Shown here: positions 9,024 through 64,000 of the stretch, piece by piece
How the letters are laid out: each line of letters begins with the position of its first letter
Numbering within the stretch: the stretch's first letter is position 1
Origin: a bacterium
GTDB lineage: Bacteria; Chloroflexota; Dormibacteria; Aeolococcales; Bog-877
Assembly (NCBI GenBank): GCA_021816695.1
Contig: JAKAXE010000001.1
Span: 2,769-66,768 of the forward strand
Direction of reading: 5' to 3'
Length of the DNA: 64,000 nt
Program-made: the position numbers and the translations under genes
The notes under the pieces: generated by a model
What the model saw: only the letters and a program-made list of their open reading frames with translations
The model's database searches: none
Told to the model about the DNA's origin: nothing

Positions 9024-9521
9024 GTGGAAGATCGCGGTCCGGAGAGCCCAGAGGAGCCGAGCCCGCAGGAGGAGAGCCTCCCGGAGTTCATGAACCCCGA
9101 GTCGGAGCACTACCAACCCTGGGCGGACAAGCAGATCTTCAACGCCTCCAAGGACAAGCGGCCGCTTCAGGAGTTCCTCCTGGAGTTCGAGCAGCGGCTG
9201 CAGGAGGCTGGCCCGGTGGGGGAGCCGGTCTGGGAGCCGGGCCGCAACCAGCGGCTGCTGGCTCGGTTCGATCCCCGGCCCGCCGAGCCCCGCCACAAGT
9301 CGCGCCGCCGCCGGCGCCCGGCGGGCCGCACGGCGGCGCCTAGCCCGGCGGCCGGACCGAATCCGGCTCGACAGTCCCGCTCCCGCCCCCCCCGCCCCGC
9401 GGGCCCGCCCGCAGGGGCCGCGAGCTCCCCGGCGGGCGGCGCACCCAGGCGGCGTCGGCGCCGGCGCCGTGGGGGAGGCGGTGGCGGCACGCCGGGAGGG
9501 ACCGCCCCGGGCGGAGGATGA
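9024..9521 (+). CDS. Hypothetical protein: acidic N-terminal half, Arg/Pro/Gly-rich basic tail
   Basis: 165 aa with strong third-position GC bias in the first ~90 codons. The tail contains RRRRR and RRRRRRR runs. No family recognised. An alternative ATG lies at 9091. Confidence 0.55.
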   Translation: MEDRGPESPEEPSPQEESLPEFMNPESEHYQPWADKQIFNASKDKRPLQEFLLEFEQRLQEAGPVGEPVWEPGRNQRLLARFDPRPAEPRHKSRRRRRPAGRTAAPSPAAGPNPARQSRSRPPRPAGPPAGAASSPAGGAPRRRRRRRRGGGGGGTPGGTAPGGG

Positions 9522-37107: not shown

Positions 37108-37212
37108 GGTGGCGGTGGCTGTGCACTTTCGGGGCACCAATTTCGGTCACCGGTGCCACCATAGGGGGCGGCGAAACAACCCGGCTGCCGGGAGCGTTGC
37201 AGGGGGTGAGGG

Positions 37213-40200
37213 GTGCGGGGAGGCTCACCCCTGCCCACCCCGGACGCACTCCAAGCAGCCCTCTACCGGATGCCCCCCATGCCCCGTGGCCGTCACCGCC
37301 TCATGAGCCACCCCCGCCGGAGCCCTCTGGCCCCGGTGTCGAGGCTCGGCCCGGCGATCGCGCAGGCTGCACCGGGCATCGATCCCGTGATGATCGCGGC
37401 GATCGGGGTGCTGGCCGTCCTGGGGGTGATGAACCTGGTCGCGGTGGGGGACTCCTCCCTCGCCCTCCACCAGAGCGTGGCGGTGGTTCTGGGGCTTCTG
37501 GTGATGCTCTGGGCCTGGCGCACCCCGGGCCGCTGGTGGCCCTGGCTGGGGAGGCTGGCCTACGCCGGCTCCGTCCTCCTGCTTCTGGGCGTAGCCGCCC
37601 ACGGGGTGGAGGCGTACGGGGCCAAGCGCTGGCTGGACATCGGCTCCTTCGTCCTGCAGCCGTCGGAGCTCGCGGAGCTGGGCCTGGCGCTGGTCCTGGC
37701 CGAGGTGATGTCACGGCGGGAATGGCGCGAGCGCAGCCGGGTGGGGGTGGCCCTCCTGCTCACGATGATCCCCGTGGGCCTGACCCTCCTCGAGCCTGAC
37801 CTCAGCACCTCGGCTCTCCTCGTCCTGATCGCATTGGCCGCCCTGGTCCTGGGCCGGGTGCGCTGGCGGGTGTTGGGGGGGCTCGGGGCTCTGGGGTTGG
37901 TCCTTCTGCCAGTGGGGCTGCACTTCCTGCGGCCCTACCAGCTGGCCCGGCTGCACAGCTTCCTCTCGGGGGCGGGCGGCTCAGGCGGGGGCTTCACGCT
38001 GGAGCAGGCGCACATCGCCATCGCCTCCGGGGGACTGCTGGGGATCGGACACTCCACGATCGCCCAGCTGCTGGCCTCCTATCTCCCGGCCAGGGAGACG
38101 GACCTCGCGTTTGCCAGCCTGATCGAGCAGTACGGGCTGGTGGCCGGGGCGGTGGCCCTCTGCGCTGCCGCGCTGCTCACCTGGCGACTGGCGTCCGCGG
38201 CGGCTTCGGCCCGAACTCCCCAGGTGGCCCTCATGGCGGGGATCATGGCGGTCCTAGTTGGCGGGGAGGTGGTTCTCTCGGCGGGCGGGAACCTGGGCGT
38301 TCTGCCCCTGGCCGGCGTCCCGATCCCCTTCCTGGCCTACGGCGGCACTGTGACGGTGGCCCACCTGGCCGCCTTCGGGGTGATCCTCGGCGGGCGTGTG
38401 GACACGGAGCGCCGCCGCCTCTGGCGGCTTCCCCCCCGCCTCCGCCAGCGCCCCCGGCTGGCCCGGACCCTGGCCATCTGCCTGGCGGCGAGCCTCCTGC
38501 TCCTAGCAGGGGTGGCCTATCACTTCCAGCAGTCCGACGGCAGCCAGGCCCGGCAGGCGGCCCTCACCGAGGTGACCCGCTGGATACCCCTCACCCCAGA
38601 GCGGGGACTGATCGAGGATCGCCACGGCACCGTACTGGCGGCCGACCCGGCCGCCGACCAGGTGGTGGCCGTACCGCAGCTGGTGCCGCAGGAACGATGG
38701 TCCCAGCTGGCGGCCCTGCTGGGGCAGCCGCTTCCCCAACTTCGACGGGAGATGGCCGAGCCCACCGAGGGCGGCTGGGTGGTGACCCTGGCCGCCCAGC
38801 TGCCCACCGTTCGCGCCCTGATGCTCCAGGCCGCCTCCGTCCCCGGGGTGATCGTCGAACCCGCGCTGGGGAGGGTCTACCCCTACGGCGCCGTGCTCGG
38901 CCCCATCCTCGGCTACACCGGGGTGGAGACCCCCCAGCAGGTCAAGCAGCTGGGTCTTCTCCCTTATGGGGCCCAGCTGGGCCAGGCGGGGCTGGAGGCC
39001 GAGTACGACTCCGTGCTGCGGGGGACGTATGGGTGGCAGGGGATCCTGGTCAACGCCCTGGGGGTCCCCGTCGGCTGGGGTCGGACCATCCCCCCGGTGA
39101 ATGGCAGGACGCTGGTCACCTCACTGGACCTTCCGCTGCAGGAGCTGGCGACCCAGCTACTGCAGAAGTCGATCTCGGGTGCCTACCCTGGCTCCCAGCG
39201 GGGGGACGAGGGGGCGGTGGTGGTGCTCGACCCGCGGAACGGCCAGGTGCTGGCGATGGCCAGCTGGCCGGCCTACAACGACCAGATCTTCGAGGCGCCC
39301 CGGGACTCCGCCGCCATCGAGCAGCTCCTCAGCGCGCCCGGGAGCCCGCTCCTGGAGCACGCCACCCAGACGGCGATGCCGCCGGGCTCCAACTTCAAGC
39401 TGGTGGTCTCCTCCGCCGACGTCTATCACGGGGCCATCCCGCCCTCCGAGGTGATCCCCACCGGCTACACCTTCACCTACGACGGGCACACCTTCGACAA
39501 CTGGGAGACCCTGCCGCCCCAGGACCTGCCGGAGGCCATCGCCTGGTCCAACGACGTCTACTTCTACAAGCTGGCGGTGGCTCTGGGAGCCCAGAACCTC
39601 ATCGGCACCGCCCAGACCATGGGGGTTGGCCAGAACACCGGGATCGACCTTCCCGGCGAGAGCCCGGGATACCTCGGAACCCCCAGCTCGGTGGCCAGCC
39701 TGGGCGAAACCTGGTACCCCGGCTCCACCGTGATCCTGGGGATCGGGCAGGGCTACGTGACCGCGACCCCCATCCAGGACGCGGTCTGGACCGCCGAGGT
39801 GGGGACCGGATCCAAGATCACCCCCCGGTTGGGGATGGCCCTGGAGACCGACTCCTCCCTCACCCCGCTCCGCGCTCCGGCGCCTCAGCCCCTGCCCTGG
39901 GCTGCGGAGCTGGGGCCGGTGCGCCAGGGGCTCCGGCTGGCGGTCACCCAGGGGACGGCTGACATGCTCGACCCCCTGAACGTGGACGCCGGGGGGAAGA
40001 CTGGGACCGCCCAGGACCCCACCGCCCCCAACGGCGGGCCAGACGCCTGGTTCACCGCCATGGCCCCGATGTCCTCGCCGCAGGTGGTGGCGAGCATGCT
40101 GGTGCGGGGTGGTGGGCAGGGTTACTACACCGACCAGCCCGCGGTCGCCCAGCTTCTCAAGTACTACTTCGCCAACCAGGCGGCGATCACCTCCACCACC

Positions 40201-40332
40201 CCCGGGCCCATCGCGGGCCCCACTGCCACCACCCCGGCGGCCCCGCCCTCACCGCCTGGGCACCCGGCGCTGGCGGTGGCTCCCGGGGCCGACCAAGCGG
40301 CCCGGCTCCGGGCGGCCGCCGGCCACCTGTGA
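37213..40332 (+). CDS. Fusion protein: SEDS glycosyltransferase (RodA/FtsW family) + class B penicillin-binding protein (PBP2-like transpeptidase)
   Basis: A single uninterrupted 1039-aa ORF. The SEDS half has 'LQPSELAEL', 'PARETDLAFASL' and 'GVLPLAGVPIPFLAYGGT'. A linker TM 'LAICLAASLLLLAGVAY' follows. The PBP pedestal has 'ERGLIEDRHGTVLA', and the transpeptidase motifs are SxxK 'GSNFKLV', SxN 'WSNDVY' and KTG 'GGKTGTAQ'. The start is uncertain (GTG 37213, ATG 37270 or ATG 37303). Confidence 0.9.
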   Translation: MRGGSPLPTPDALQAALYRMPPMPRGRHRLMSHPRRSPLAPVSRLGPAIAQAAPGIDPVMIAAIGVLAVLGVMNLVAVGDSSLALHQSVAVVLGLLVMLWAWRTPGRWWPWLGRLAYAGSVLLLLGVAAHGVEAYGAKRWLDIGSFVLQPSELAELGLALVLAEVMSRREWRERSRVGVALLLTMIPVGLTLLEPDLSTSALLVLIALAALVLGRVRWRVLGGLGALGLVLLPVGLHFLRPYQLARLHSFLSGAGGSGGGFTLEQAHIAIASGGLLGIGHSTIAQLLASYLPARETDLAFASLIEQYGLVAGAVALCAAALLTWRLASAAASARTPQVALMAGIMAVLVGGEVVLSAGGNLGVLPLAGVPIPFLAYGGTVTVAHLAAFGVILGGRVDTERRRLWRLPPRLRQRPRLARTLAICLAASLLLLAGVAYHFQQSDGSQARQAALTEVTRWIPLTPERGLIEDRHGTVLAADPAADQVVAVPQLVPQERWSQLAALLGQPLPQLRREMAEPTEGGWVVTLAAQLPTVRALMLQAASVPGVIVEPALGRVYPYGAVLGPILGYTGVETPQQVKQLGLLPYGAQLGQAGLEAEYDSVLRGTYGWQGILVNALGVPVGWGRTIPPVNGRTLVTSLDLPLQELATQLLQKSISGAYPGSQRGDEGAVVVLDPRNGQVLAMASWPAYNDQIFEAPRDSAAIEQLLSAPGSPLLEHATQTAMPPGSNFKLVVSSADVYHGAIPPSEVIPTGYTFTYDGHTFDNWETLPPQDLPEAIAWSNDVYFYKLAVALGAQNLIGTAQTMGVGQNTGIDLPGESPGYLGTPSSVASLGETWYPGSTVILGIGQGYVTATPIQDAVWTAEVGTGSKITPRLGMALETDSSLTPLRAPAPQPLPWAAELGPVRQGLRLAVTQGTADMLDPLNVDAGGKTGTAQDPTAPNGGPDAWFTAMAPMSSPQVVASMLVRGGGQGYYTDQPAVAQLLKYYFANQAAITSTTPGPIAGPTATTPAAPPSPPGHPALAVAPGADQAARLRAAAGHL

Positions 40333-40342
40333 GCCGTGAGCG

Positions 40343-41368
40343 TCAGGCCTGGGGCGGGGCCCCCTTGAAGGCGGCCAGGACCCGGGGGGTGGAGAGCGCC
40401 TTGGCTGCCCCCTCGGCAACGCAGGTGAGCGGTCGCTCCGCCAGGGTCACAGAGAATCCCAGGGCATCCTCCAGGTGGCGCTGGAACCCCTCCAGCAGTG
40501 ACCCGCCGCCGAAGGCCAGCACCCCACCCTGCATGATGTCGCCCACCGCCTGGGGTGGCAGCCGGTCCAGGACCTCGGCCAGCGCCTCCACGATCCCGTC
40601 CACGGTGGGGCGGATGGCCAGCGCCGCCTCGTCCGGATCCAGGGTCTGCATGCGCGGCTTGCCGGTGAAGACGTCACGTCCCTCGACCACGATGGGGTTG
40701 GGAACGGAGTCCACCTTGCGCAGCCGGATCTTGATGTCCTCCGCGGTCAGCTCGCCGACGATGAGGTGGTGCTCTTGCCGGAGGTACTGGTTGAGGGCGG
40801 CGGTCATCTCGTCCCCCGCCACCCGGCAGGAGCTGGCGGCCAGGATGCCCCCGAAGCAGATGGCGGTGACCTCGGCGGTACCCCCGCCCACATCCACCAC
40901 CATGTGCGCCCTTGCCTCCAGCGGGTCGATGCCGCAGCCGATCGCTCCCGCCACCGGCTCGGGGATGAGGTCGGCGTGCCCGATCCCCGCCTCCTCCAGC
41001 GCCTCCACCAGGGCCTGCCTCTCCAGCCCGGTCGCCCCGGCGGGGACCCCGCAGATCGCCCGGGGGCGGAAGCGCTCCCAGGGGCGGCGCGTCACCTGGT
41101 GGATCACCACGTTGATGAATCCCTTGGCGGACTGCAGGTCGGTCACCACCCCGTCCCGGATCGGCCGCACCGTGGCCATGCCCACCGGCGTCCGCCCGGT
41201 GAGCTCGCGGGCCTGGCGCCCGACGAGGATGGGGCGGCGGTTGCCGTCCGCCCCCAGGGTCACCAGCATCACCGAGGGCTCGTTGAGCAGGATGGTGCCG
41301 TCGCGGCGGCAGACCACGGTGTTGGCGGTCCCCAGGTCGATGCCCAACTCTGCCGACAGCAAGCCCAT
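40343..41368 (-). CDS. mreB: Rod-shape-determining actin homologue MreB
   Basis: 'LGIDLGTANTVVC', 'VVDVGGGTAEVTA' and 'AFGGGSLLEG'. The ATG at 41368 is chosen; the track ORF extends to 41437. Confidence 0.93.
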   Translation of the reverse strand: MGLLSAELGIDLGTANTVVCRRDGTILLNEPSVMLVTLGADGNRRPILVGRQARELTGRTPVGMATVRPIRDGVVTDLQSAKGFINVVIHQVTRRPWERFRPRAICGVPAGATGLERQALVEALEEAGIGHADLIPEPVAGAIGCGIDPLEARAHMVVDVGGGTAEVTAICFGGILAASSCRVAGDEMTAALNQYLRQEHHLIVGELTAEDIKIRLRKVDSVPNPIVVEGRDVFTGKPRMQTLDPDEAALAIRPTVDGIVEALAEVLDRLPPQAVGDIMQGGVLAFGGGSLLEGFQRHLEDALGFSVTLAERPLTCVAEGAAKALSTPRVLAAFKGAPPQA

Positions 41369-41439
41369 CCCCGTCACCCGCCTACCGGAACCTGAACGCA
41401 ACCCCGCCCCAAGCCTACCCCTCCCCGTCAGCAGCAACG

Positions 41440-42891
41440 ATGCCTGAACTGATCTCGTTTCGGGACGGGTCGAGAATCTCGCTCGCGGGCAGCCCCGAGG
41501 AGTTGGCCGGAGGCTCCCTGATGGCGGGCGGCAGGAGTTGCGAGCTGAGGCACCGCCGGCTCAGCTCCACCCCGCAGGCGCAGGAGCTGGTGGAGCGGCT
41601 GCGGGTGGCGGCGAGCGTCCCTGGCGCCCTGACCCTGCCTCCCGAGGCCGCGGCGGCCGAGGGCTCACAGGTGGTCTGCGCCTTCCGGGCCCGGCGGGGA
41701 GCGGACCTGCGTTCTGTTCTCCGGTTGGTGCCGCTCACCCTGGAGCAGGCCGCCCTCCTCGGCGACGGGCTGCTGGCTGCGCTGGCCGCCCTCCACCGCC
41801 GGGGGGTGGTCCAGGACCGTCTTGATCCGGAGCGGCTCCTCCTCGGCCAGGACGGCCGCCTCCGCTTGCTGGAGCCGGGGCTGTGGGCCCCGCTCGAAGC
41901 CCATCCCCCCGGCCGCGACCTCGAGCGTGCCGGGCGGCTCCTGGAGCGGATCCTGGGGTCGGTGACCGGGGCCGCCCGCAGAGACGGGTCGGACCTCTCC
42001 CAGCTTCGCTCCGTGGCCGAGGGACTCGGCACCGCCGAGGGGGCGGCCGCGGCCGGACTCTCACTCGCCGCCTGGCGGTCGGCCCTGCCGCTGGATCCCC
42101 GCCGACGCCAACGGGTGCGGAGCCAGCTCGGTGCCCTTGGTGCCAGACTGCCCCAGTCGCTCCCCGCGACCCCTCGCTCGTCGTCGGCCCCGTCGGAACT
42201 GGGAGACGGGAAGCCATCGGCCCCGGAGCTTCCCGTCGGCGCCGCGGCGATGCCCCTGGGCTCAGCCCCAAGCGGCCGGCCCCCGGCTCCCCTCCCGCCG
42301 TTCGCGGCCCCGGCGGGTCGGGCGCCGCGGAGATCCCGCACCCTGGCCGCACTGGGTGCCGCGGTGGTCCTGGTCTCGTTAGGGGTGCTGGCGGCGCATT
42401 TGGGCGGCCACCCGGCCTCCTCGGCCCCTGCGCCCCGCGCCCCCGCCTCCACGCCGGCGCCGTCCGTCTCCAGCTCACCGTCCGCGGGCCCGTCGCCCAC
42501 GGCGACGCCGCCTCCCACGGCCGCTCCGCCGGGGGAGATACCTCTCCTCGGGCCGCCCTCTGTCCCCCCGGTCCGGCAGGTAGCCCTGACCGCCTCGTGC
42601 CCCCCAGGAGGGGGCCCCTGCCAGTTCAACGTCACCGCCCAGCTCGGTGCCCACCCCTCCGACTCGGTGCGCTGGGAGCTGGACGAGGTCAACCGGTGCA
42701 CGGGGGACGTGGCCACCGTAGCCAGCGGGGTGGTGAGCGCCCCCGCCTTCTACACCTACGTCGAGGCCCAGCCCACGGTCACCGTGCCGGCCAGCGGTGC
42801 GGTGGCGATGATCGCCCTGGCAGGGGCGGGTGGGCTGGCGGCCTCACCCCCGCTGAGCCTGGGCCCGGCCCCGGCCAGCTGCCCCGGCTGA
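41440..42891 (+). CDS. Single-pass membrane protein with a degenerate (catalytically dead) Ser/Thr-kinase-like cytoplasmic domain, Pro-rich linkers and a Cys-containing extracytoplasmic domain
   Basis: 'LHRRGVVQDRLDPERLLLGQDGRLRLLEPGL' aligns with the kinase 'LH..GIVHRDLKPENILL...G.LKL.DFGL', but HRD is replaced by QDR and DFG by EPG. No Gly-rich loop or VAIK Lys is recognisable. TM 'LAALGAAVVLVSLGVLAAHL'. Confidence 0.55.
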   Translation: MPELISFRDGSRISLAGSPEELAGGSLMAGGRSCELRHRRLSSTPQAQELVERLRVAASVPGALTLPPEAAAAEGSQVVCAFRARRGADLRSVLRLVPLTLEQAALLGDGLLAALAALHRRGVVQDRLDPERLLLGQDGRLRLLEPGLWAPLEAHPPGRDLERAGRLLERILGSVTGAARRDGSDLSQLRSVAEGLGTAEGAAAAGLSLAAWRSALPLDPRRRQRVRSQLGALGARLPQSLPATPRSSSAPSELGDGKPSAPELPVGAAAMPLGSAPSGRPPAPLPPFAAPAGRAPRRSRTLAALGAAVVLVSLGVLAAHLGGHPASSAPAPRAPASTPAPSVSSSPSAGPSPTATPPPTAAPPGEIPLLGPPSVPPVRQVALTASCPPGGGPCQFNVTAQLGAHPSDSVRWELDEVNRCTGDVATVASGVVSAPAFYTYVEAQPTVTVPASGAVAMIALAGAGGLAASPPLSLGPAPASCPG

Positions 42892-48628: not shown

Positions 48629-49777
48629 CTAACCGTAGATGAAACCTTCGACTCCCTGCAGGGTGTAGATCTCGCGCTGGTCCGCCAGCCCGTAGCCGTA
48701 GAAGTTGTCCTCCTCGACGACGAAGGTGGTGGGCCCGAGGACCGCGACCACCCAGGCGACGTGGCCGTAGTAGTAGTCGTAGATCCCCCCGGGATCGAAG
48801 ACCACCATGGAGTCCACTCGGGGGGTGGAGCCCACCTGGTAGGGGGTGCCCATGGAGTAGTCCTCCTGGATCCACTGGTCCGCGTTGCCCCGCGGCTGCC
48901 AGGGCACGTTGGTCTGCCCGGCCACGAACCAGGTGCACTGACCCCATGGGTACCCGTCGGGATAGGCCGGGGCCGGGGCCGGGAAGGTCTTGAGGATGGT
49001 TCCCTCCTCGGCGCTGGCGGGTCCGCCATAGGAGTTGATCGCCGCCTCCTCCGCCTGGAGCGTCTGGATCTGGGAGGCGATCTGCTGGATCTGGGAGGCG
49101 ATCTGCCCGGCCTGCCCGGACAGCGAGCTGGCCTGGTTCTGGAAGCTCAGCTCCTGGGCCTGGAGCTGGTTGGCGGCCGCCTGGAACGACGCCACCAGGG
49201 CGGTGACCCGCTGCTGCTGGGCCTGCTGTCCCGCCTGGAGCGTCCGTAGCTGGGCCTCCTCGCTGGTGAGCTCCTGGGTGAGAGAGCTGAACTGCTGGCC
49301 CACGGTCTGGAGCTGGAGCGTGGTGTCGAAGAACTGGGTCACCCCCGAGCTGTCGGCGATGGCCGTCGATAGGTTGTTGGCGTTGCCGTGCTGGTACATC
49401 TCCCGGACCAGCTGGGCCAGCTGGTTGCGGTCCAGGACGATCTGGGCCTGGGTCTGCCCGATCCGGTCGTTGGTCTCGGCCAGGGCGGCGTTCGCCTGGG
49501 CCAGTTCGGCCTGCCCCTGGGCGAGCTTCGCCTGGGCGGTGGCCACCTGCTGCTGGGTGGACGCGGCCTGTTGGGCTGCCGAGGAGGCCTCTCCCTGGAT
49601 GCCCGCCAGCTGGCTTCGGAGAGCGCTCTCCTGGGCCTGCAGCTGGGCGATCTCGGCCCCGAGGTTGCTGGCTCCGGCCGGCCTGGCCACGATCGCCGCC
49701 GCACCCAGCACCAGCGTGCCGAACAGACCCAGTTGGGCGGTCAGGCGCAGCAGCCGCGATTTCAGTGGTCGAGACAT
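48629..49777 (-). CDS. Secreted Gln-rich coiled-coil + CHAP-domain peptidoglycan hydrolase (PcsB/RipC-like architecture)
   Basis: Signal/TM 'LGLFGTLVLGAAAIVA', about 230 aa of Q/A-rich heptads, then CHAP with 'YPWGQCTWFVAG' (Cys) and 'YGHVAWVVAV' (His). The ATG at 49777 is preferred; the track start TTG at 49795 is possible. Confidence 0.8.
   Translation of the reverse strand: MSRPLKSRLLRLTAQLGLFGTLVLGAAAIVARPAGASNLGAEIAQLQAQESALRSQLAGIQGEASSAAQQAASTQQQVATAQAKLAQGQAELAQANAALAETNDRIGQTQAQIVLDRNQLAQLVREMYQHGNANNLSTAIADSSGVTQFFDTTLQLQTVGQQFSSLTQELTSEEAQLRTLQAGQQAQQQRVTALVASFQAAANQLQAQELSFQNQASSLSGQAGQIASQIQQIASQIQTLQAEEAAINSYGGPASAEEGTILKTFPAPAPAYPDGYPWGQCTWFVAGQTNVPWQPRGNADQWIQEDYSMGTPYQVGSTPRVDSMVVFDPGGIYDYYYGHVAWVVAVLGPTTFVVEEDNFYGYGLADQREIYTLQGVEGFIYG
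49064..49105. repeat. Perfect 21-bp tandem duplication (2 x CTGGATCTGGGAGGCGATCTG) inside the coiled-coil region of the CHAP hydrolase gene
   Basis: Read directly from the sequence. It encodes QIASQIQ-QIASQIQ, an in-frame duplication of exactly one heptad. Confidence 0.9.
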
Positions 49778-49803
49778 GGGGAGGGACGAGAGCAAGTTTG
49801 TCT

Positions 49804-49831
49804 CGCCGCGATCCTAACAGCGATCGCGGCG
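49804..49831. repeat. Perfect 10-bp inverted repeat CGCCGCGATC-N8-GATCGCGGCG just upstream of the CHAP hydrolase gene
   Basis: Read directly from the sequence. It lies 27-54 nt upstream of the ATG at 49777, so it is either an operator-like palindrome or a 5'-UTR hairpin. Confidence 0.85.
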
Positions 49832-57260: not shown

Positions 57261-58070
57261 GTGCTGCAAGGGTTCGAGTACCGCACCCCGGAGAGCATCA
57301 CCGTCTCCCAGCCGGTGGCCGGGATCGGCTCGCGCGGGCTGGCGGCGGTGGTGGACACCGTGGTCATCCTGCTGATCATCCTCGCCTTTCTGGCCGGCGC
57401 GATCGCGGTGTCCGGCTACACCCTGAGCGCCGCGCCGGCGGGCGGTGCCCTGATCATCCTGGTGGTCGTGGCCTCGGTGGTCCCGGTGGCTTACTACGTT
57501 CTCTGGGAGGTGGCGACCCGGGGCCGTTCTCTGGGCAAGCTGATCTTCAGCCTCCGGGTGGTGGACCGCTCGGGGGTCCCTCTCAGCCCCGCCGACTCGC
57601 TGGTGCGCAACCTGGTCCGGATCCTGGACTTCCTCCCCTTCCTGTACGGGATCGGCGTCTTGGCGATGTTCGCCGGCTCCCGTCCCCGGCGGCTCGGCGA
57701 CCTCGCGGCCGGTACCCTCGTGGTCCACGACCGCGGCCTGCGCCATCTGGAGCGCGGCTTCTACGCCAGACCCAGCCCTCGGCTGCGCCGCAGCGATCCC
57801 GGTCCGCCGATTCCCGGGGCGGAATCCTGCGGACGGCGCGAGTTCGGCCTGATCGAGGATCTGCTGGCCCGCCCGGAGCTTTCCCCGCGGCGCCGCCAGG
57901 AGGTATCCCTGGAGCTGGTCCGGCTGCTGGAGCGGCGGCCCGGGGTGGTCTGGCCAGTGCCTCTGGACCGGGATCCCCTCGACCTGCTGGAGAGGCTCTA
58001 CCTCCAGATCCGGCAGCGGCTCATCGACCCCGCCCCAGCTGGGGAGCCCGCTCGACCCGTCGAACCCTGA
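57261..58070 (+). CDS. RDD-family membrane protein
   Basis: 'GIGSRGLAAVVDTVVILLI' and 'WEVATRGRSLGKLIFSLRVVDRSG'. Divergent from the SpoIIM-like gene. GTG start. Confidence 0.8.
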   Translation: MLQGFEYRTPESITVSQPVAGIGSRGLAAVVDTVVILLIILAFLAGAIAVSGYTLSAAPAGGALIILVVVASVVPVAYYVLWEVATRGRSLGKLIFSLRVVDRSGVPLSPADSLVRNLVRILDFLPFLYGIGVLAMFAGSRPRRLGDLAAGTLVVHDRGLRHLERGFYARPSPRLRRSDPGPPIPGAESCGRREFGLIEDLLARPELSPRRRQEVSLELVRLLERRPGVVWPVPLDRDPLDLLERLYLQIRQRLIDPAPAGEPARPVEP

Positions 58071-58344
58071 GCTCGCGCTCTCTGGGCTCGCGGCGGCGAG
58101 CGGGGGGTGGTGGGTCGCTGGGCTCCTTGAGGTTGCGCCGCACCGTTACCGGGCGCCGGGACGCCTCCACCACGGCCTCCAGGAAGGCCCATACCCGGTA
58201 GGCTCCGTAGCCGGCCAGCAGTAGCAGGGTCACCCCAGCCACCAGGTTGAGCAGGCCCGCCAGCGGCGGGAGCACCACCGCCAGCGCCGCGCAAGCTCCC
58301 ACCAACGCCAGACCGGACTTGAGTCTTCGCAGAGCCACGCCCAT
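58021..58344 (-). CDS. Small two-TM membrane protein (hypothetical)
   Basis: 107 aa with an ATG start. TM segments 'LALVGACAALAVVLPPLAGLL' and 'VAGVTLLLLAGYGAY', then a basic tail. The 3' end overlaps the convergent RDD gene by 50 nt. Coding status is moderate. Confidence 0.4.
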   Translation of the reverse strand: MGVALRRLKSGLALVGACAALAVVLPPLAGLLNLVAGVTLLLLAGYGAYRVWAFLEAVVEASRRPVTVRRNLKEPSDPPPPARRREPRERELRVRRVERAPQLGRGR

Positions 58345-58389: not shown

Positions 58390-58992
58390 GTGCCTTTCTC
58401 CGCCCCCCGCCCCGATGGCGGTCTGGGGCCCCACCCCCACCGCAGCTGGCTGCATCTGCTGCCCCACGACCCGGGCCAGCGGCCGGTGCGGTCCGCGGAC
58501 GGTCTGGTCCGGCAGATCCTGGTGGAGGAGGGGCTCGCAGTTCCGGGGCCGGAGGGTTCGCTCCTACCAGGGCCAGAGTTCGCGGGTGCGCTGGGAGCTC
58601 GGTCCGGCGGCCTTCCCATGGCCGGCATGCCGCCCCGCGGGGAGGTTCGGGTGGAGTCGGGGGTGCTGCGCTTCTACCCCGATCCCGGGCCCGACGGTTT
58701 CGACTCCATGCCCCTGCGCTCCTACCGGGCGCCCTGCCCCGAATGCGGAAGTGAACTGGACCTCTTCTCGCTCCGCTTCCCCCACCCTGACCCCCACACC
58801 GCGACCTGCCCGGCCTGCGGCGCCGCCGTCTCCTTGCTGGCGGTCGAGTTCACCCCGGAGCTTCCCCGCGCCTGGATGGAGATCACCTTCGGCGACCTGG
58901 ACCACCGGCCCAGCCTCCGGCCGCACCCGGTGTTCTCGCGGCTGGAGCGGGCCCTGGGGTTTCGGCTGCGCGAGGTCCACGTCAGCCTCTGA
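58390..58992 (+). CDS. Hypothetical protein with CPxCG...CPxCG zinc ribbon
   Basis: 200 aa with good third-position GC bias. Contains 'APCPECGSELD...ATCPACGAAV'. No family recognised. Confidence 0.5.
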   Translation: MPFSAPRPDGGLGPHPHRSWLHLLPHDPGQRPVRSADGLVRQILVEEGLAVPGPEGSLLPGPEFAGALGARSGGLPMAGMPPRGEVRVESGVLRFYPDPGPDGFDSMPLRSYRAPCPECGSELDLFSLRFPHPDPHTATCPACGAAVSLLAVEFTPELPRAWMEITFGDLDHRPSLRPHPVFSRLERALGFRLREVHVSL

Positions 58993-58999
58993 GGCTGGC

Positions 59000-59896
59000 T
59001 CACAGCTCTCCCACGGAGAGGCGCCTCACCGCACGGCTCCAGCGCCGAGCCGCGGCCTCGGCGCTGGACTCATAGTGGGTGGCCACATTGAGCGCCCCCG
59101 GGACCCGGAGCATGAGGTAGAGGCTGGCGAGGGCGTACAGCATCCCGGCCAGCCCGCCCCCCCGGGTGAACGCCAGCTGGACCGCCACCCGCAGGACCAG
59201 GAGCTGGCCGAACTGCATGAACAGCGACACCACCAGGAGCCTGGCCCATTGCCGCGCGAAGCCCCGGGTCTCCGGCAGCACCGTGCAGTAGGCGGCCAGC
59301 GGGGCGGCGGCGCACAGGACGGCCAGCAGGGTGTAGCGCACCACGTAGCTCAGGGCCAGGATCACGACCGCCACCACCAGGGCTGCGGCGAAGAGCAGGA
59401 GGAAGAGGTTCTCGCCCGCCGACTGCACCCCCTGCGGGCTGAGGGGAGAGCTCCAGGGGAGGGCGCTCAGGGAAAGCTGGACGCCGCCGACCACCACCGC
59501 ACAGAGGGCGTTGTTTAGATCGATCAGCTGCTGCAGGAGGGGCAGGCTTCCCGTGGCCAGCGCCACTGCCACCAGACACCGGGGAAGCACTTGCTGAAGC
59601 TGGTGACGGACGGCTCCCAGGTCCGCCACGGTGCGCAGTGAGCTGTACAGCAGGACGCCCAGCAGCAGAGCCGCGCCCGCGGCCGCCAGCAGGTGGTTGA
59701 GCGTGGCCAGGCCCGGTGTCCCGGTGAAGGGTGACTGGGTCCTCCCCCCGGCAGCGTCGTAGGTGCCGAAGAGGTAGGTCTTGAGGGCCGCGTCCAGCGC
59801 TCCCCGGGCGCTGCTCACGAATTCGGAGAGGATCCCATCGAAGAGCCCGGCCAGGGCCCCCAGAGGGTTGATGCCGAACTGGGGAGTTCCCGGCAT
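59000..59896 (-). CDS. Polytopic membrane protein, TrbL/VirB6-like (type IV secretion channel component candidate)
   Basis: 298 aa with about 6 TM segments, and no similarity I can see to transporters. Size, topology and position after a pilin-like gene and near a VirB4-like ATPase fit actinobacterial TrbL/VirB6-type proteins. The assignment is by context and not by motif. Confidence 0.45.
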   Translation of the reverse strand: MPGTPQFGINPLGALAGLFDGILSEFVSSARGALDAALKTYLFGTYDAAGGRTQSPFTGTPGLATLNHLLAAAGAALLLGVLLYSSLRTVADLGAVRHQLQQVLPRCLVAVALATGSLPLLQQLIDLNNALCAVVVGGVQLSLSALPWSSPLSPQGVQSAGENLFLLLFAAALVVAVVILALSYVVRYTLLAVLCAAAPLAAYCTVLPETRGFARQWARLLVVSLFMQFGQLLVLRVAVQLAFTRGGGLAGMLYALASLYLMLRVPGALNVATHYESSAEAAARRWSRAVRRLSVGEL

Positions 59897-59908
59897 CAGG
59901 GCACTCGG

Positions 59909-60148
59909 TCAGCCCAGCCCATGAGGCACCGCGGAGAGCAGGACGTGGGTCAGGACCCCGGCCAACTCCACCCCCAGGGTTCCGACGGCGATCCTCCCGA
60001 GCCAGCGCTGGGCCTCCAGAGCGCTGTGGGGGCTGGGAGCGACCACCCGCCAGATGAACGCGCAGACGAAGGCCAAGGTGCCCAGGCTGGCGATCAGCTC
60101 CTGCCCCAGGAGAACCCAGGAATTGAGTAGCGAGACCAGTTGGGCCAT
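59909..60148 (-). CDS. Small two-TM protein, TrbC/VirB2 pilin-like candidate
   Basis: 79 aa from the ATG at 60148, preceded by GGAGGA. Two hydrophobic helices separated by a short polar loop, directly upstream of the TrbL-like gene. Confidence 0.4.
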   Translation of the reverse strand: MAQLVSLLNSWVLLGQELIASLGTLAFVCAFIWRVVAPSPHSALEAQRWLGRIAVGTLGVELAGVLTHVLLSAVPHGLG

Positions 60149-60211
60149 GGGGGTCCTCCGCACTTGCCTTTGAACCCCACATAGGTCCGCCGGAGCCCCG
60201 GCCCTGGCCCC

Positions 60212-60682
60212 TCAGCCGGCGTCCGCCTCCCAGGCCGGCTCGCCCGAGCTGAGGACCACGGTGACCGGGCCGTCGTTCACCGACTCGACCTCCATATGGG
60301 CCCCAAACTGCCCCTCGGCCACCCCCGCCACCCCCAACCGGCTCAGCTCCTCCCCGAACGTGCGACAGAGTTGGATGGCCGCGGCCGGGGCGGCCGCCCC
60401 CAGGAAGGACGGCCGGTGGCCCCGCCCGGTGGCGGCATAGAGTGTGAACTGGCTCACCACCAGTGCCTGGCCACCTGCCTCCAGCAGGGAGCGGTTCATC
60501 CTCCCCTGGTCGTCAGGGAAGACCCGGAGCGTGGCGATGCGGCCGGCCAGATGGCGGGCGACTTGCTCATCGTCCCCGGGCCCGATTCCCAGGTACACCA
60601 GGAGCCCGGGGCCGGTGGCCCCTACCTCCTCCCCCTGCACCCTGACCGCTGCCCGCTGGACCCGCTGGACCACTGCCCTCAA
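60212..60682 (-). CDS. dtd: D-aminoacyl-tRNA deacylase
   Basis: '(L)RAVVQRVQRAAV', 'GLLVYLGIGPGD', 'VSQFTLYA' and 'GHRPSF'. The TTG start aligns with Met1 of E. coli Dtd and lies 2 nt after the upstream stop. Confidence 0.9.
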   Translation of the reverse strand: MRAVVQRVQRAAVRVQGEEVGATGPGLLVYLGIGPGDDEQVARHLAGRIATLRVFPDDQGRMNRSLLEAGGQALVVSQFTLYAATGRGHRPSFLGAAAPAAAIQLCRTFGEELSRLGVAGVAEGQFGAHMEVESVNDGPVTVVLSSGEPAWEADAG

Positions 60683-60684
60683 GG

Positions 60685-61281
60685 TCAGCCGATCGCCTGC
60701 AGGCCGCGGTAGATCCTCATCGCCTCCGCCTCCGCCTCCAGGAAGCTGCCCGCCGCGGCCCGCATCCCCTGGAGGGCGAACCCCCACTGTCCCGTGGGGG
60801 TGTCCGGGCCGGGAAGGGTTCGGCCCCGGTAGCGCGGGGGATAGAAGGTGATGGTCGCCTGGGGCAGCCGCTTGAAGATCGGTCCCGCGACCATCAGCTC
60901 GTCGATGGTGCGCGGCCCACTCACCCTCCCCTCGATGAACTCCAGCCGCCGCTGCTTGCGGATGGGGTTGTCCAGGTCGTCGATGAGCACCCTTCCCCCC
61001 CGCTCCTCGGTCATCCGCAAGAGCCCGAAGCAGACCGCCAGGGCGTCGGTCTCGTCACCCTCCACCTTCACGAAGCCCGCACCCAGGATGGGGTCAGGGG
61101 TCTCCCGCCGCAGGTGGCGCAGGTATTCGGACTGGAAGAGGCCGCGGGATGTATCCGTGGCCAGCCACATCTCCCCTTCACGCCAGCTTCGCGTGGCCGC
61201 GAAAAGCCGAACCGCCTCCTCCCAGGCGGCGACGGTGGCACGTCCGGAATTGAGCAGTCGGTAGCGCACCACCCGACCCAT
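60685..61281 (-). CDS. Hypothetical soluble protein (198 aa) between the VirB4-like ATPase gene and dtd
   Basis: ATG start 9 nt after the VirB4-like stop. Balanced amino-acid composition, no TM segment, no family recognised. Confidence 0.55.
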   Translation of the reverse strand: MGRVVRYRLLNSGRATVAAWEEAVRLFAATRSWREGEMWLATDTSRGLFQSEYLRHLRRETPDPILGAGFVKVEGDETDALAVCFGLLRMTEERGGRVLIDDLDNPIRKQRRLEFIEGRVSGPRTIDELMVAGPIFKRLPQATITFYPPRYRGRTLPGPDTPTGQWGFALQGMRAAAGSFLEAEAEAMRIYRGLQAIG

Positions 61282-61290
61282 GGGGCGATT

Positions 61291-63195
61291 CTATCCTCGG
61301 TCGCCACTCGCCCCCACTCCGGGTGGCTGCACCCTGACCCTGGCCTGGGTGGCCCCGGCCAGCATCAGGAACTCGCCCCGGCTGCACCGCTGCAGCCATT
61401 CGCAGTCCTCGTCACTTAGGTCGAAGCCCGACTTGAGGCGCTGGAGCCCGGGCCCGGTCGTCGACCCCACCAGCAGGGTCGCCGAGTTGCCGGCGACCAG
61501 CTCGCCGAAGTCCTCGACGGCAAGGTCGCGGGGCGCCTGGGTCAGGAGCAGCAGGGAGCCGGAATACTTGCGCAGTCGCCGGGCCATCTGCCCCATCAGC
61601 TCGGCCAGTTGGGGCTGGGTGGCGAGCAGACCGGCCTCGTCGATGATGACCTGCTTGGGAGCGGGGTCGCGTTGCGCCCAGGCCCAGAGCCATTGCGAGA
61701 CCAGCAGGGCGGCGCCCGCCCGCCAGCGCGCGGGGAGATCGCGCAGCCCCACCCCGAGGGCGCGGGTCACCTCCGGGCCCCGGCCGGGCCGGCTGAAGAG
61801 CATTCCCCCCTGCCCCTCGACCCACGGCCGCAGCCGGGCCGCCAGGCTACGGCCGTGGGGGTCCCCCGCCATCGCGGGCAGCAGGTCGGCCAGCACCGGT
61901 GCCGAGCCGCCAGCGCCCAGCCGAGCAGCTGCACATGCCTCCAGGAAGGCGCCCACCTCCGAGGGGGAGAGGGGGCCAGCCAGCAGCTCCACCAGCTCCC
62001 GGGCGGCGAGTTCGCCCTCCCCGGGCGTTGCGGTCTCGAAGACGTTGAAGCCGAGCCCGCCGCCGCGGGCCAGGTCGAGGTACGTGCCTCCCACGGCCTC
62101 ACACCACTCCCGGTGCTCGTTCTCCGGGTCAACCACGACGGTGAGCGCCCCAGCCCGCGCCTGGGAGATACCGACCACCCGCGCCAGGTAGGACTTGCCG
62201 GCGCCCGAGGCGGCGATCACGCAGCAGTTGGAATTGGGGGCGGCGGCCGAGGCGGCCAGCTTCAGCCCCACCGGGCCCTGAGTGCGCAGGTGACGACCGA
62301 TCCGGCAGCTCCCCGGGCCCAGCTCCCCCGGCCCGTCCAGCCAGGGCCAGAAGGTTGCCAACTCCGGGGTGGTGAGCAGTCGGATGAAGGCTCGCCGGGG
62401 TCTCCCACATCCCCTCGCCTCCAGCAGGGCCGGACCCTCGTCCAGCCAGGCCGGCGCCAGCTGGGCCCGCATCCCCAGCGCCCGGCGTCGCAGCCGGGCC
62501 GTGGCCGCCCGCACCTCCCCGACCGGGCCGCCTCCGACCGCCATCGAGACCGCCACCTCGAACGCCCGCCCCTCTCCCCGGGCCAGAACCTCGCGGAGGT
62601 GGGTGGCGGCCGCCCTCTCGACCACCAGCGCCGGGTCGGGCATCCCCCAGTCCGCCTCCAGCTCGCGGGCTGCCAGCTCCCGCAGCCGGTGGCGGAGTCG
62701 CCGGTCGGCGCTGCCGGTGGTCACCGGAGAGATGCTTACGGTGAGGTCAAGGTCCTGTGGCTCGCCCACCAGCTGCCACAGCCAGCCGGCTTCGACCGGC
62801 ACCCGTGGCAGGGTGGTGAGCCGGAGGCACTCCACCCACCACCCCGCCCACCCGATGCCCGTGGCCCGCTCCCGGATTGGCCCCTGAATGAGAGGAGGGA
62901 GGGTGCTCGAGGCGCGCACCTCGGCCCCGCAGAGCCTCTCCAGCTGAGCTGTCGTCTGGGCCGCGCGGTCGGCGCTGGCAGATCGCAGCCAGACCGACCG
63001 ACGGCGCCGGCCGTCCGCCTGCCGTGATGTAACGGTGAGGCGGACCGGAGCATCGAGCTGGTCTAACCATGCCTCGAACCCAGCCAGCAGCTGGGCTCGG
63101 GGAGCCGGACGGGCGTCGAGGATGTCCGGGCCGGCGATCTCTATGAGCCACTCCGCCTCAGCGGACTTCGCGCCGGCTATCCGGCATCCGTCCAA
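61291..63195 (-). CDS. VirB4/TraC/TrsE-like conjugation-type ATPase (AAA_10/DUF87-like)
   Basis: 634 aa. The N-terminal domain follows the VirB4 pattern ('WLIEIAGPDILDARPAPRAQLLAGFEAWLDQLDAPVRLTV'). Walker A 'CCVIAASGAGKSYLARVV', Walker B 'KQVIIDEAGLL', then 'RRLRKYSGSLLLLTQAPRDL'. Confidence 0.75.
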   Translation of the reverse strand: MDGCRIAGAKSAEAEWLIEIAGPDILDARPAPRAQLLAGFEAWLDQLDAPVRLTVTSRQADGRRRRSVWLRSASADRAAQTTAQLERLCGAEVRASSTLPPLIQGPIRERATGIGWAGWWVECLRLTTLPRVPVEAGWLWQLVGEPQDLDLTVSISPVTTGSADRRLRHRLRELAARELEADWGMPDPALVVERAAATHLREVLARGEGRAFEVAVSMAVGGGPVGEVRAATARLRRRALGMRAQLAPAWLDEGPALLEARGCGRPRRAFIRLLTTPELATFWPWLDGPGELGPGSCRIGRHLRTQGPVGLKLAASAAAPNSNCCVIAASGAGKSYLARVVGISQARAGALTVVVDPENEHREWCEAVGGTYLDLARGGGLGFNVFETATPGEGELAARELVELLAGPLSPSEVGAFLEACAAARLGAGGSAPVLADLLPAMAGDPHGRSLAARLRPWVEGQGGMLFSRPGRGPEVTRALGVGLRDLPARWRAGAALLVSQWLWAWAQRDPAPKQVIIDEAGLLATQPQLAELMGQMARRLRKYSGSLLLLTQAPRDLAVEDFGELVAGNSATLLVGSTTGPGLQRLKSGFDLSDEDCEWLQRCSRGEFLMLAGATQARVRVQPPGVGASGDRG

Positions 63196-63434
63196 GACGA
63201 CCGCTCGCCCCGGCCGGCGAGGGAGCGGAGCCAGTAGGCGCCGAGCCGCTCGAGCCAGCCCAGGGCCGAGAGCTCCAGCAGCCTGGCCCAGGCCAGGAGC
63301 GAGCCCGGCCCCAGCACCAGCCCGGCTAGGAGCACCCTGGGCCCCAGGGGGAGCGGGGCTCGCAGCGCGGCTGCCCCTCCCGCCAGGACGAGGCCTAGAA
63401 GGGCCAGCCGGGCTGGTGGCAGCCCGAGCGCCAT
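63177..63434 (-). CDS. Small two-TM protein, PrgI/VirB3-like candidate
   Basis: 85 aa from the ATG at 63434, preceded by GAGGAG; the track start GTG at 63470 is also possible. Hydrophobic hairpin 'LALLGLVLAGGAAAL...VLLAGLVLGPGSLLAW'. The 3' end overlaps the VirB4-like start, the classic VirB3-VirB4 arrangement. Confidence 0.4.
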   Translation of the reverse strand: MALGLPPARLALLGLVLAGGAAALRAPLPLGPRVLLAGLVLGPGSLLAWARLLELSALGWLERLGAYWLRSLAGRGERSSWTDAG

Positions 63435-63586
63435 CGCCTCCTCACGCCCGCCGTCCGGAGCCAGGATCACGTCTCACCAGGCTGGACCGGCCGCGGCCCC
63501 GCCGTGACGCCCGCACTCCCGAGACACCCGCAGCTGAACACCTCCATCCCCGTCCACCAACGTCCGCCGCCCGGCGGAGGGTGGGC

Positions 63587-64000
63587 TCAGGGACGGTGGA
63601 GCTCGAAGGTGAAGCCCACCGTCTGGGAGGGCAGGCGGGGCGCCTTGGTGACCCGCACCGTGACCCGCTCAGCCCGCGGGAGCGCCAGCACCGCCTCCGC
63701 GATGGCTCCCGCGAGCGCCTCCAGAAGGTTGAACTCCGACCCCTGAACCACCCTCCGGACGGCCGCCTCCACCAGGGAGTAGCTGAGGGTGTCTTCCAAG
63801 CGGTCACTGGCCACGGCGACCGACAGGTCCGCCTCCACCTCCACATCCACCTCCACGTGCGACCCCAGCTCGCGCTCGGCGGGGTGCGCCCCGTGCCGAC
63901 CGAAGTAGCGAAGCCCCCGGAGGACCAGCCGCTCGCGACCCCGACGGTCGGAGCTCAGGGAGCCGTCCCTGTAGGGGAGTCCACCGCCTCGATGGACTCG
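63587..64000 (-). CDS. folB: Dihydroneopterin aldolase; 5' boundary unresolved (frame stays open to the window edge)
   Basis: 'RLVLRGLRYFGRHGAHPAERELGSHVEVDVEVEADLS...SDRLEDTLSYSLV...FNLLEALAGAIAEAVL...VTVRVTKP'. The homologous part starts near 63930. There is no ATG/GTG/TTG upstream of 63856 in frame, so the start is either a CTG-type codon or the reading frame continues beyond the window. Confidence 0.85.
   Translation of the reverse strand, partial: RVHRGGGLPYRDGSLSSDRRGRERLVLRGLRYFGRHGAHPAERELGSHVEVDVEVEADLSVAVASDRLEDTLSYSLVEAAVRRVVQGSEFNLLEALAGAIAEAVLALPRAERVTVRVTKAPRLPSQTVGFTFELHRP

Follow-up and report, generated by a model that had tools for sequence, protein, structure and literature searches.

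A conserved chromosomal VirB4 locus of Candidatus Dormibacterota, putatively encoding a domesticated, relaxase-less type IV secretion-type apparatus

Results

A compact gene set within a housekeeping gene string

The stretch of DNA analyzed here (64,000 nucleotides of contig JAKAXE010000001.1, assembly GCA_021816695.1, positions 2,769 to 66,768 of the forward strand; hereafter "the window") comes from a genome of Candidatus Dormibacterota and holds, close to its end, a tightly packed string of seven minus-strand genes in the order folB, a PrgI/VirB3-like gene, virB4, a gene for a 198-amino-acid (aa) protein (orph198), dtd, a gene for a 79-aa protein (sm79) and a TrbL-like gene (Table 1), several of which seem to be parts of a minimal type IV secretion system (T4SS). 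The seven genes, their positions and their spacings, as listed in a preliminary description made from the sequence alone, were borne out by reading the sequence again and by profile matches: the 3' end of the PrgI-like gene overlaps virB4 by 19 nucleotides (nt), orph198 starts 9 nt after the virB4 stop, the TTG start of dtd (60682) is read 2 nt past the TGA of orph198, sm79 can be read as having a Shine-Dalgarno sequence of its own (GGAGGA, 7 nt ahead of the ATG), and the TrbL-like gene begins 12 nt after sm79.

The host chromosome is ~72% GC, and the composition of the locus is flat (GC 0.71-0.74, versus 0.69-0.75 window-wide), with no compositional shift. The other genes of the window, as judged from the 20 largest other open reading frames (ORFs), are those of a core chromosome (GyrA, ProRS, DinB, MreB, a RodA-PBP2 fusion, PEPCK, a CoxL-type dehydrogenase, MoxR/DUF58 and IspH), and no coupling ATPase, relaxase or integrase is among these 20. 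A second AAA_10/TraG/FtsK-like ATPase was found neither in the window nor within 10 kb of VirB4 in ~55 Dormibacterota loci, the single tRNA gene of the window lies at least 46 kb from the locus, and the only direct repeats found were imperfect chance matches, none of them resembling attachment (att) sites. The ORF, repeat and GC checks thus confirm for the window what had been noted at the outset, namely, that it shows no coupling ATPase, relaxase, integrase, att repeat or change in composition.

Table 1. Genes of the locus and its immediate flanks in the window (position 1 is the first letter of the window)
Feature	Positions	Strand	Remarks
PrgI/VirB3-like	63177..63470	-	97 aa from GTG 63470; 85 aa from ATG 63434
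VirB4-family ATPase	61291..63195	-	634 aa; AAA_10 and P-loop_TraG above Pfam cut-offs
orph198, putative conserved cytoplasmic VirB4 partner	60685..61281	-	198 aa; family without a Pfam domain
dtd, D-aminoacyl-tRNA deacylase	60212..60682	-	156 aa, TTG start; Tyr_Deacylase 1.7e-48
sm79, two-helix membrane hairpin, candidate VirB2/CedA1-like subunit	59909..60148	-	79 aa
TrbL/VirB6-like polytopic membrane protein	59000..59896	-	298 aa; Pfam TrbL_4
folB, dihydroneopterin aldolase	63587..63958, start codon uncertain (at least 63856)	-	Pfam FolB 1.7e-18
unkC ortholog, 3' end	63955..64000	-	Conserved 145-aa protein in relatives; string runs past the window end
Zinc-ribbon protein, convergent with the TrbL-like gene	58390..58992	+	Weak zinc-ribbon Pfam matches

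The VirB4 ATPase and its membrane partners

The ATPase passes the Pfam cut-offs for both AAA_10 (35.5 bits, cut-off 27.5) and P-loop_TraG (33.8 bits, cut-off 25.8) and carries a Walker A motif (ASGAGKS, residues 328-335) and a Walker B motif (VIIDEAG, residues 516-522), whose P-loop residues GAGKS and DE are invariant in a 22-sequence VirB4 alignment. A profile built from 22 orthologs matched, at E <= 0.001, VirB4 (4AG5, 1.9e-28), TrwK (3.8e-8) and one designed P-loop protein in the PDB, with neither HerA nor FtsK among these matches, while DUF87/HerA scores below its Pfam cut-off on the protein, all of which upholds the initial assignment to VirB4 and not to HerA/FtsK. The best NCBIfam matches are VirB4/TraC models without exception, at 52.8-62.1 bits versus cut-offs of 325-643, i.e., the equivalog/subfamily score is not reached; the window ATPase is, in sequence terms, a very divergent yet genuine member of the VirB4 family. 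Its close homologs (41-89% identity) are all from Dormibacterota metagenome-assembled genomes (MAGs), beyond which identities of at most 34% are seen in Actinobacteria, Chloroflexota and Patescibacteria, and the best plasmid-borne relative is 28% identical. Past the Walker B motif, Dormibacterota-type VirB4 sequences read DE(A/L)GLL (DEAGLL in the window) and then ARR(I/L)RKY(Q/H/S)G; DE(A/L)GLL and ARRIRKY are common to both of the divergent Dormibacterota lineages described below and absent from the VirB4 of the Chloroflexota and candidate phyla radiation (CPR) types, which have DEAW. A defense-system reading of the locus was rejected, as PADLOC gave a generic ATPase match (mad8, 1.7e-9) on VirB4 and nothing on its partners.

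The small protein encoded immediately upstream of VirB4, an arrangement seen in 57 loci, has two hydrophobic segments. The window protein alone has no Pfam match, and direct PF12666 matches in relatives are weak and below the cut-off (2.5e-4 and 0.021), whereas a profile of 15 family members compared by hhalign with a Pfam-PrgI (PF12666) protein of an actinobacterial-type integrative and conjugative element (ICE) gave a probability of 96% and E 4.4e-9, which supports its initial description as PrgI/VirB3-like. The start proposed with that description, ATG 63434, is less likely than GTG 63470, since starting at the ATG would leave out the acidic-x-x-ALGL motif that the family conserves ahead of it. 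PrgI-like proteins of sister clades bear a ~190-aa C-terminal domain resembling ParA/MinD (CpaE/TadZ-type) ATPases (L004:9144-10004, L014-L017, L020, L022, L023, L027, L030, L036, L037, L041 and L039:8722-9987), the Walker A motif of which is degenerate in most (RPGVGCT) and intact in L039 (KGGVGRTT). In the window clade, the domain has been lost.

The TrbL-like protein passes the cut-off of PF19597 (TrbL_4; 37.4 bits, cut-off 27, 2.4e-9), its orthologs carry TrbL_3/TrbL_4 matches, and classical PF04610 reaches only 0.069, so that the polytopic TrbL/VirB6-like protein named in the preliminary description is one by the Pfam TrbL_4 cut-off. A crude hydropathy scan gives ~5-6 transmembrane (TM) segments, the protein aligns with the TrbL_3 proteins of ICE loci, with invariant P, R, W and Q residues common to both, and its profile had no match among PDB sequences.

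The product of sm79 is always 79 aa long and at least 72% identical across 26 clusters, with TM segments at 12-30 and 53-71 in a hydropathy scan and helices at 2-36 and 40-73 in an AlphaFold (AF2) model (mean predicted local distance difference test score, pLDDT, 82). It has no signal peptide, as in CedA1, and no Pfam match. Compared by hhalign with two T4SS_pilin proteins, it gave E 0.54 with one and, with the other, E 0.0055 at a probability of 6.6%, co-linear over 68 columns; its gene lies directly upstream of TrbL, in the same place as T4SS_pilin in the ICE loci L087 and L089. As to the pilin-like two-TM protein originally claimed here, the two TM segments and the separate Shine-Dalgarno sequence stood up to scrutiny, whereas what suggests a pilin is the size, the topology and the position upstream of TrbL only, and sm79 is treated below as no more than a candidate one.

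Conservation and selection across Dormibacterota

Dormibacterota are described as free-living soil oligotrophs. A scan for VirB4 with one genome per species yielded 79 loci, within which gene order was established by tblastn and hidden Markov model (HMM) surveys for 33 species-level loci whose VirB4 is 37-89% identical to the window's (groups A/B). All of these show one co-directional order, UbiA/UroD/CHAP/SLT/M20/MR_MLE/unkA/unkB/unkC/FolB/PrgI-like/VirB4/orph198/Dtd/sm79/TrbL, followed by a zinc-ribbon gene in convergent orientation and, at some distance, IspH, and the part running from VirB4 through orph198, dtd and sm79 to TrbL is found at near-constant spacing in each of the 30 loci whose sequence reaches past VirB4 in the downstream direction. 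A second lineage, group C (~22 loci, among them Ca. Dormiibacter inghamiae and Ca. Nephthysia bennettiae), has VirB4 proteins 27-34% identical to the window's and the order PrgI-like, VirB4, orph198 and alpha/beta hydrolase amid ordinary chromosomal genes, with dtd 1.8-3.3 kb downstream of VirB4 in three loci and ~9.7 kb downstream in a fourth. The PrgI-like/VirB4/orph198 trio is the oldest unit, because groups A/B and C share both the trio itself and the DE(A/L)GLL and ARRIRKY motifs.

Pairwise ratios of nonsynonymous to synonymous substitution rates (dN/dS) between the window and six close relatives were 0.03-0.06 for sm79, ~0.09 for TrbL, 0.05-0.12 for orph198, ~0.2 for VirB4 and 0.12-0.28 for the PrgI-like gene, next to 0.05-0.11 for ispH and 0.15-0.24 for dtd; all genes of the locus are under purifying selection comparable to that acting on these two comparison genes. 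At a greater distance (L006 versus L004), identity falls to 44% for VirB4 and 35% for the PrgI-like protein, versus 77% for IspH. Judging by these sequence comparisons, the gene set is intact, constrained and vertically inherited, and is neither a recent nor a decaying insertion, because synteny is fixed, selection is purifying and no mobility genes lie nearby.

Some single loci deserve mention in their own right. In Ca. Dormiibacter inghamiae, a tyrosine integrase gene (L045:7515-8678, minus strand; Phage_integrase 8e-28) stands directly upstream of the PrgI-like gene, and no homolog of it was found in any other locus of either lineage. Upstream of VirB4 in another locus (L053:2030-6374) are genes for a ParA/CpaE-like protein (KGGTGRTT), a 436-aa protein and two 4-TM proteins, a run that looks Tad/Flp-pilus-like by size and topology. 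A number of MAGs with Dormibacterota-specific genes (including L016, L020, L035, L040 and L051) are labeled Micrarchaeaceae archaeon, Nanopelagicaceae, Acidiferrales, Solibacter, Thermoplasmata or Verrucomicrobiae, and the VirB4 of L061, a record labeled Gammaproteobacteria, is of the Patescibacteria type (60-75% identity to CPR proteins); such odd labels are probably taxonomic mislabels in the source records.

The 198-aa partner of VirB4

The 198-aa protein had been set down as an orphan, a designation that does not survive the wider comparison: its gene directly follows VirB4 in groups A/B and also in the divergent group C, and, on sequence grounds, it is better regarded as a lineage-restricted, conserved VirB4 partner found in both Dormibacterota lineages. 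Its 226 homologs are nearly all ~198 aa long, carry no Pfam domain in any case and come from Dormibacterota-type sources throughout (a few with obviously wrong MAG labels), and a profile search of 1.84 billion representative proteins retrieved only 60 members or fragments of the same narrow family. The conserved motifs are GDETDA, DNPIxKxR, ITFYPP and FLEAEAEAMRIYR. The AF2 model is confident (pLDDT 88, predicted template modeling score 0.83), and Foldseek returned no fold match at E < 0.001 in either the PDB or BFVD; comparison with the TraC-like protein of a CPR locus showed no similarity (E 0.23).

The orph198 profile aligns weakly with the VirB4 P-loop region (E 0.02, probability 2%), and the order along this alignment is a strand, GDETDA in place of GxGKS, a helix, and a strand with DxDNPI against DPENEH; this could be chance or might hint that the protein descends from an NTPase domain that has degenerated. 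Longer matches to orph198 (P0265 and others) were considered as fusions and rejected, being frameshifted read-throughs, of which that in P0265 runs into dtd and so reveals orph198/dtd adjacency in another lineage. The frameshifted calls P0265, P0268 and P0273 start with MLYQLSYLGD, a typical spurious translation of a tRNA gene, and orph198 seems to be closely preceded by such a gene in those genomes.

Relatives outside the phylum

The nearest VirB4 proteins from outside Dormibacterota (29-34% identity) belong to true conjugative elements, L087 (Actinomadura) and L089 (metagenome), which have the order T4SS_pilin, TrbL_3, PrgI and VirB4, together with a Replic_Relax relaxase, a large ATPase resembling type IV coupling proteins (T4CPs), an SLT/NlpC hydrolase, a methylase and a serine recombinase. 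Queries with the T4CP-like, Replic_Relax and recombinase proteins of these ICEs returned nothing from the window or from any of the Dormibacterota loci, and did find matches in a Dehalococcoidia locus; the ICE relatives show what the Dormibacterota locus has lost and rearranged. The Patescibacteria locus examined has a TraC-like gene followed by VirB4, beside dnaN and dnaA, in line with the account given in PMC12102498.

In a neighbor-joining (NJ) tree of VirB4 (521 columns, 100 bootstraps), which is rough and has saturated distances, groups A/B were supported at 100, all Dormibacterota-type sequences as one split at 65, CPR at 100, CPR plus the Chloroflexota type at 90, and these two plus the actinobacterial ICE type likewise at 90. 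The Dormibacterota VirB4 looks, on this topology, like a lineage of its own outside the Patescibacteria clade, and the Dormibacterota system is probably a separate domestication. A link between Dormibacterota and VirB4 or T4SSs was not found in the literature searched, the phylum being mentioned only as a sister lineage (PMC12102498).

Neighboring housekeeping and upstream genes

Whereas the preliminary description had confined the set to positions 59000-63470, the co-directional string continues upstream to CHAP and SLT. In the relatives L001, L006 and L004, the genes on the same strand upstream are those for CHAP, SLT, an M20 peptidase, an MR_MLE epimerase, unkA, unkB, unkC and folB, and six independent relatives have unkC/B/A, MR_MLE, M20, SLT, CHAP, UroD and UbiA in the sequence past window position 64000. 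VirD4, relaxase and integrase genes are absent from the relatives' sequence corresponding to that region. The CHAP and SLT proteins of the relatives are membrane-anchored hydrolases encoded by adjacent genes, CHAP and then SLT, ~5.5 kb upstream in the same string. A second CHAP protein is encoded in the window itself (48632-49813, minus strand; 42% identical to the upstream CHAP of relatives), and this paralog is also present ~9-11 kb downstream of VirB4 in L014, L015, L016 and L023.

Of the two interleaved housekeeping genes, dtd passes the NCBIfam equivalog TIGR00256 (140.5 bits versus a cut-off of 101.5) and has an identical position in 30 of the 30 informative group A/B loci, and folB keeps the same position across group A/B loci; on the simplest reading, both became interleaved with the system and probably share transcription with it without taking part in it. 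The start of folB is peculiar in that its reading frame carries conserved N-terminal residues (RERLVLRGLRYFGRHG...) ahead of GTG 63856, the first canonical start codon, and contains no ATG, GTG or TTG between there and the window end. Where the window folB has CGG, the relatives L013 and L011 have ATG or GTG (L006/L010/L011/L013 compared, ~9253-9352), and a CTG overlaps the TGA of the upstream gene (cTGA), so that either initiation is non-canonical or coupled, or FolB might be N-terminally truncated in this clade.

On the other side of the locus, the zinc-ribbon gene and the gene of a 107-aa single-TM protein (58021-58344, minus strand) are conserved throughout group A/B and not found near VirB4 in group C. 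The neighborhood as a whole is rich in D-amino-acid/murein-peptide functions (Dtd, the L-Ala-D/L-Glu epimerase family, M20 peptidase, CHAP and SLT), which may or may not be meaningful, the whole region being syntenic. Further away in the window, a 1040-aa ORF (37210-40332, plus strand) joins FtsW/RodA/SpoVE, PBP dimerization and transpeptidase domains, i.e., a RodA-PBP2 fusion, and is adjoined by mreB (40343-41560, minus strand).

Discussion

A probable domesticated T4SS-type apparatus and how it might work

With a fair, though far from complete, degree of confidence, the locus can be read as encoding a chromosomal, vertically inherited and domesticated minimal T4SS-type translocation apparatus of Candidatus Dormibacterota, of the monoderm kind that resembles mating-pair formation type FATA (MPF-FATA), which the cells probably re-purposed for their own use. 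In T4SSs in general, hexamers of VirB4 dock via VirB3/PrgI, VirB6/TrbL forms the inner-membrane channel and VirB4 drives either the extraction of hairpin subunits or the passage of substrate, while in monoderm T4SSs, PrgK/TraG-type SLT/CHAP enzymes open the wall. Transferred to the locus described here, a VirB4 hexamer would dock on the cytoplasmic face of the membrane via the PrgI-like protein, the TrbL-like protein would form the membrane channel, and ATP-driven VirB4 would either pull sm79 hairpins out of the membrane to build a short conduit or a pilus, or push substrate through the channel, with the membrane-anchored CHAP and SLT hydrolases opening the cell wall locally. The orph198 protein might act on VirB4 from the cytoplasm, in the role of an adaptor, a regulator or a receptor for the substrate, standing where conjugative systems have their coupling protein. 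A machine exporting its own element is unlikely because the locus is without DNA-processing genes. As for the substrate, the best guess that can be offered ranks cell-to-cell transfer or import of chromosomal DNA first, because the archaeal Ced system has the same list of parts, with protein or contact-dependent secretion as a close second.

A number of points weigh against this reading and should be stated together. The main fact that a single-machine model leaves unexplained is that group C has no TrbL, sm79, CHAP or SLT gene within 10 kb of VirB4, and the PrgI-like/VirB4/orph198 trio may accordingly work without a TrbL channel, or differently. The candidate pilin is without significant similarity to VirB2 or T4SS_pilin in the hhalign comparisons, no homolog of it below 72% identity was found anywhere, and a fold search with its model matched nothing specific (a helical hairpin makes such a search uninformative). 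The SLT domain shows only generic catalytic-motif similarity to ICE VirB1-like hydrolases and the PDB, and a T4SS-specific reading of the upstream CHAP is weakened because that protein is one of a small set of CHAP paralogs encoded by these genomes. Nothing resembling VirB8 was identified, unkA, unkB and unkC having no Pfam match, and promoter and terminator scans of the locus came back empty. Moreover, the whole 20-kb region is syntenic, housekeeping genes included, so that adjacency alone is no proof that CHAP/SLT, dtd or folB function together with the system. Genes for a coupling protein or a relaxase could exist in other parts of the genome, the search having covered the window and, within 10 kb, ~55 loci, and no computed result discriminates between substrates or directions of transport.

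Weighing the other explanations

That the same apparatus serves protein secretion or contact-dependent cell interaction, and not DNA movement, is rather unlikely, though it merits being taken seriously: the Patescibacteria system is built along the same general lines and likewise lacks a relaxase (PMC12102498), protein-secreting T4SSs without a T4CP exist (Ptl and Brucella VirB, cited in PMC12102498), and the complete Dormibacterota chromosomes in the set are small (2.4-2.5 Mb). The conserved locus, however, holds no candidate effector, adhesin or toxin gene, its VirB4 stands apart from the Patescibacteria clade and has no TrsD/TraC-like partner. The free-living, oligotrophic habit described for Dormibacterota in soil speaks against it as well. 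A more radical departure, clearly improbable in view of the evidence, is that there is no single machine at all, and that the PrgI-like protein, VirB4 and orph198 form a membrane-tethered ATPase module with a non-secretion role, to which TrbL and sm79 are neighbors merely through a frozen gene order. Group C, in which the trio persists with intact Walker motifs and without TrbL or sm79 within 10 kb, speaks for such a module, and that no divergent sm79 was detected and that the flanking housekeeping genes are equally syntenic fits it too. Yet the sm79-TrbL pair mirrors the pilin-TrbL pair of related ICE T4SS loci, the two genes are separated by 12 nt and rank with the most constrained of the locus, VirB4 and PrgI are, to our knowledge, known only as T4SS components, and TrbL could lie elsewhere in group C genomes.

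The two explanations that invoke a mobile element fare worse. The early alternatives for the locus were a domesticated machine or a decayed element, of which the former is supported by synteny, purifying selection, intact ATPase motifs and the lack of mobile-element genes nearby, and the latter is rejected. A decaying remnant of an ancient ICE, kept by chance or by read-through transcription with dtd, would account for the missing relaxase, T4CP and integrase, and for VirB4 and the PrgI-like protein evolving faster than IspH; it is very improbable all the same, given that every one of the 30 informative loci has all its genes intact, with dN/dS of 0.03-0.28 and invariant catalytic motifs, and that this conservation spans species whose VirB4 proteins are only 37-44% identical. 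Least probable of all is a recent or active ICE or plasmid-derived island with the rest of its genes just outside the window, for which one could cite the very presence of T4SS-family genes and the tyrosine integrase beside the PrgI-like gene in L045. What lies beyond the window end in six relatives is the run from unkC to UbiA, and the composition is flat, att repeats and a nearby tRNA gene are missing, and the location is identical in 33 species; the preliminary description had likewise argued against a recent conjugative element, and the relatives, which carry the genes in the same place and have no VirD4, relaxase or integrase in the equivalent of the sequence beyond 64000, agree with it.

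Comparison with known systems

The Patescibacteria/CPR T4SS is chromosomal and relaxase-less (Quinonero-Coronel et al. 2025, PMC12102498), epibiotic growth of Southlakia needs it according to a study cited there, and Dormibacterota are a sister lineage of CPR in a phylogeny cited by the same authors. The Dormibacterota system is like it in being chromosomal, widespread in its phylum and derived from the monoderm type, in comprising VirB4, PrgI/VirB3, a VirB6-like protein and a small VirB2-like candidate, and in having housekeeping neighbors and no relaxase at the locus. It differs in its separate VirB4 lineage, in the lack of a TrsD/TraC-like protein by VirB4, in the presence of orph198 and an interleaved dtd, and in a host phylum described as free-living and not epibiotic.

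The archaeal Ced and Ted systems, chromosomal and relaxase-less DNA importers, consist of an ATPase of the VirB4-like kind, a VirB6-like channel with 6-7 TM segments and two 2-TM proteins, one of which is an unprocessed pilin, and Ted loci are often associated with MinD/ParA ATPase genes (Beltran et al. 2023, PMC9905601). The combination of chromosomal VirB4-like, VirB6-like and 2-TM subunits without a relaxase recurs in Dormibacterota, as a resemblance in architecture only, and the ParA/MinD-like domain fused to the PrgI-like protein in sister clades recalls the MinD/ParA genes of Ted. The Dormibacterota system is, in contrast, bacterial and of the MPF-FATA sequence type, its orph198 has no Ced counterpart, its sm79 is no more than a candidate pilin, and neither Ups-like aggregation pili nor a link to DNA damage is known for it.

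To the actinobacterial ICE T4SSs (MPF-FATA), the system is tied by the PrgI, TrbL_3/4 and VirB4 families and by the small 2-TM gene directly upstream of TrbL, whereas the ICE order of pilin, TrbL, PrgI and VirB4 with mobility genes is replaced by PrgI, VirB4, orph198, dtd, sm79 and TrbL in a fixed position without such genes. The ComB system of Helicobacter is a T4CP-less T4SS for DNA uptake. Ptl of Bordetella and VirB of Brucella are T4CP-less T4SSs that secrete proteins (cited in PMC12102498), and together with ComB they exemplify, as the Dormibacterota locus might, that a machine based on VirB4 can take up DNA or export proteins while having neither relaxase nor coupling protein; these diderm systems are, unlike the present one, of the MPF-T type with VirB7/9/10 outer-membrane cores, none of which is present here.

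A further possibility, tentative and to be held as unlikely for the time being, is that the locus represents a third, independent domestication of a conjugation machine, after Ced/Ted and Patescibacteria, in which orph198 would replace the coupling protein, sm79 would be an unprocessed conjugative-type pilus subunit and free-living soil cells would exchange or import chromosomal DNA.

What the locus means for the phylum and the T4SS family

As a domesticated, relaxase-less T4SS derivative, the system is of a known kind; what sets it apart is its own VirB4 lineage, orph198 with its lack of a fold match, the rearranged gene order with dtd inside and its occurrence in a phylum described as free-living. 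Such derivatives have so far been documented in hyperthermophilic archaea (Ced/Ted) and epibiotic Patescibacteria, and a fixed system in a free-living, globally abundant and uncultured soil phylum, sister of Patescibacteria at that, would extend the phenomenon. It also bears on the question, left open in PMC12102498, of whether the CPR T4SS was horizontally acquired or is older than the lineage, on which the rough NJ tree argues for separate origins of the CPR and Dormibacterota T4SSs. Finally, orph198 and sm79 are highly constrained structural targets for finding out how a VirB4 machine runs without a coupling protein.

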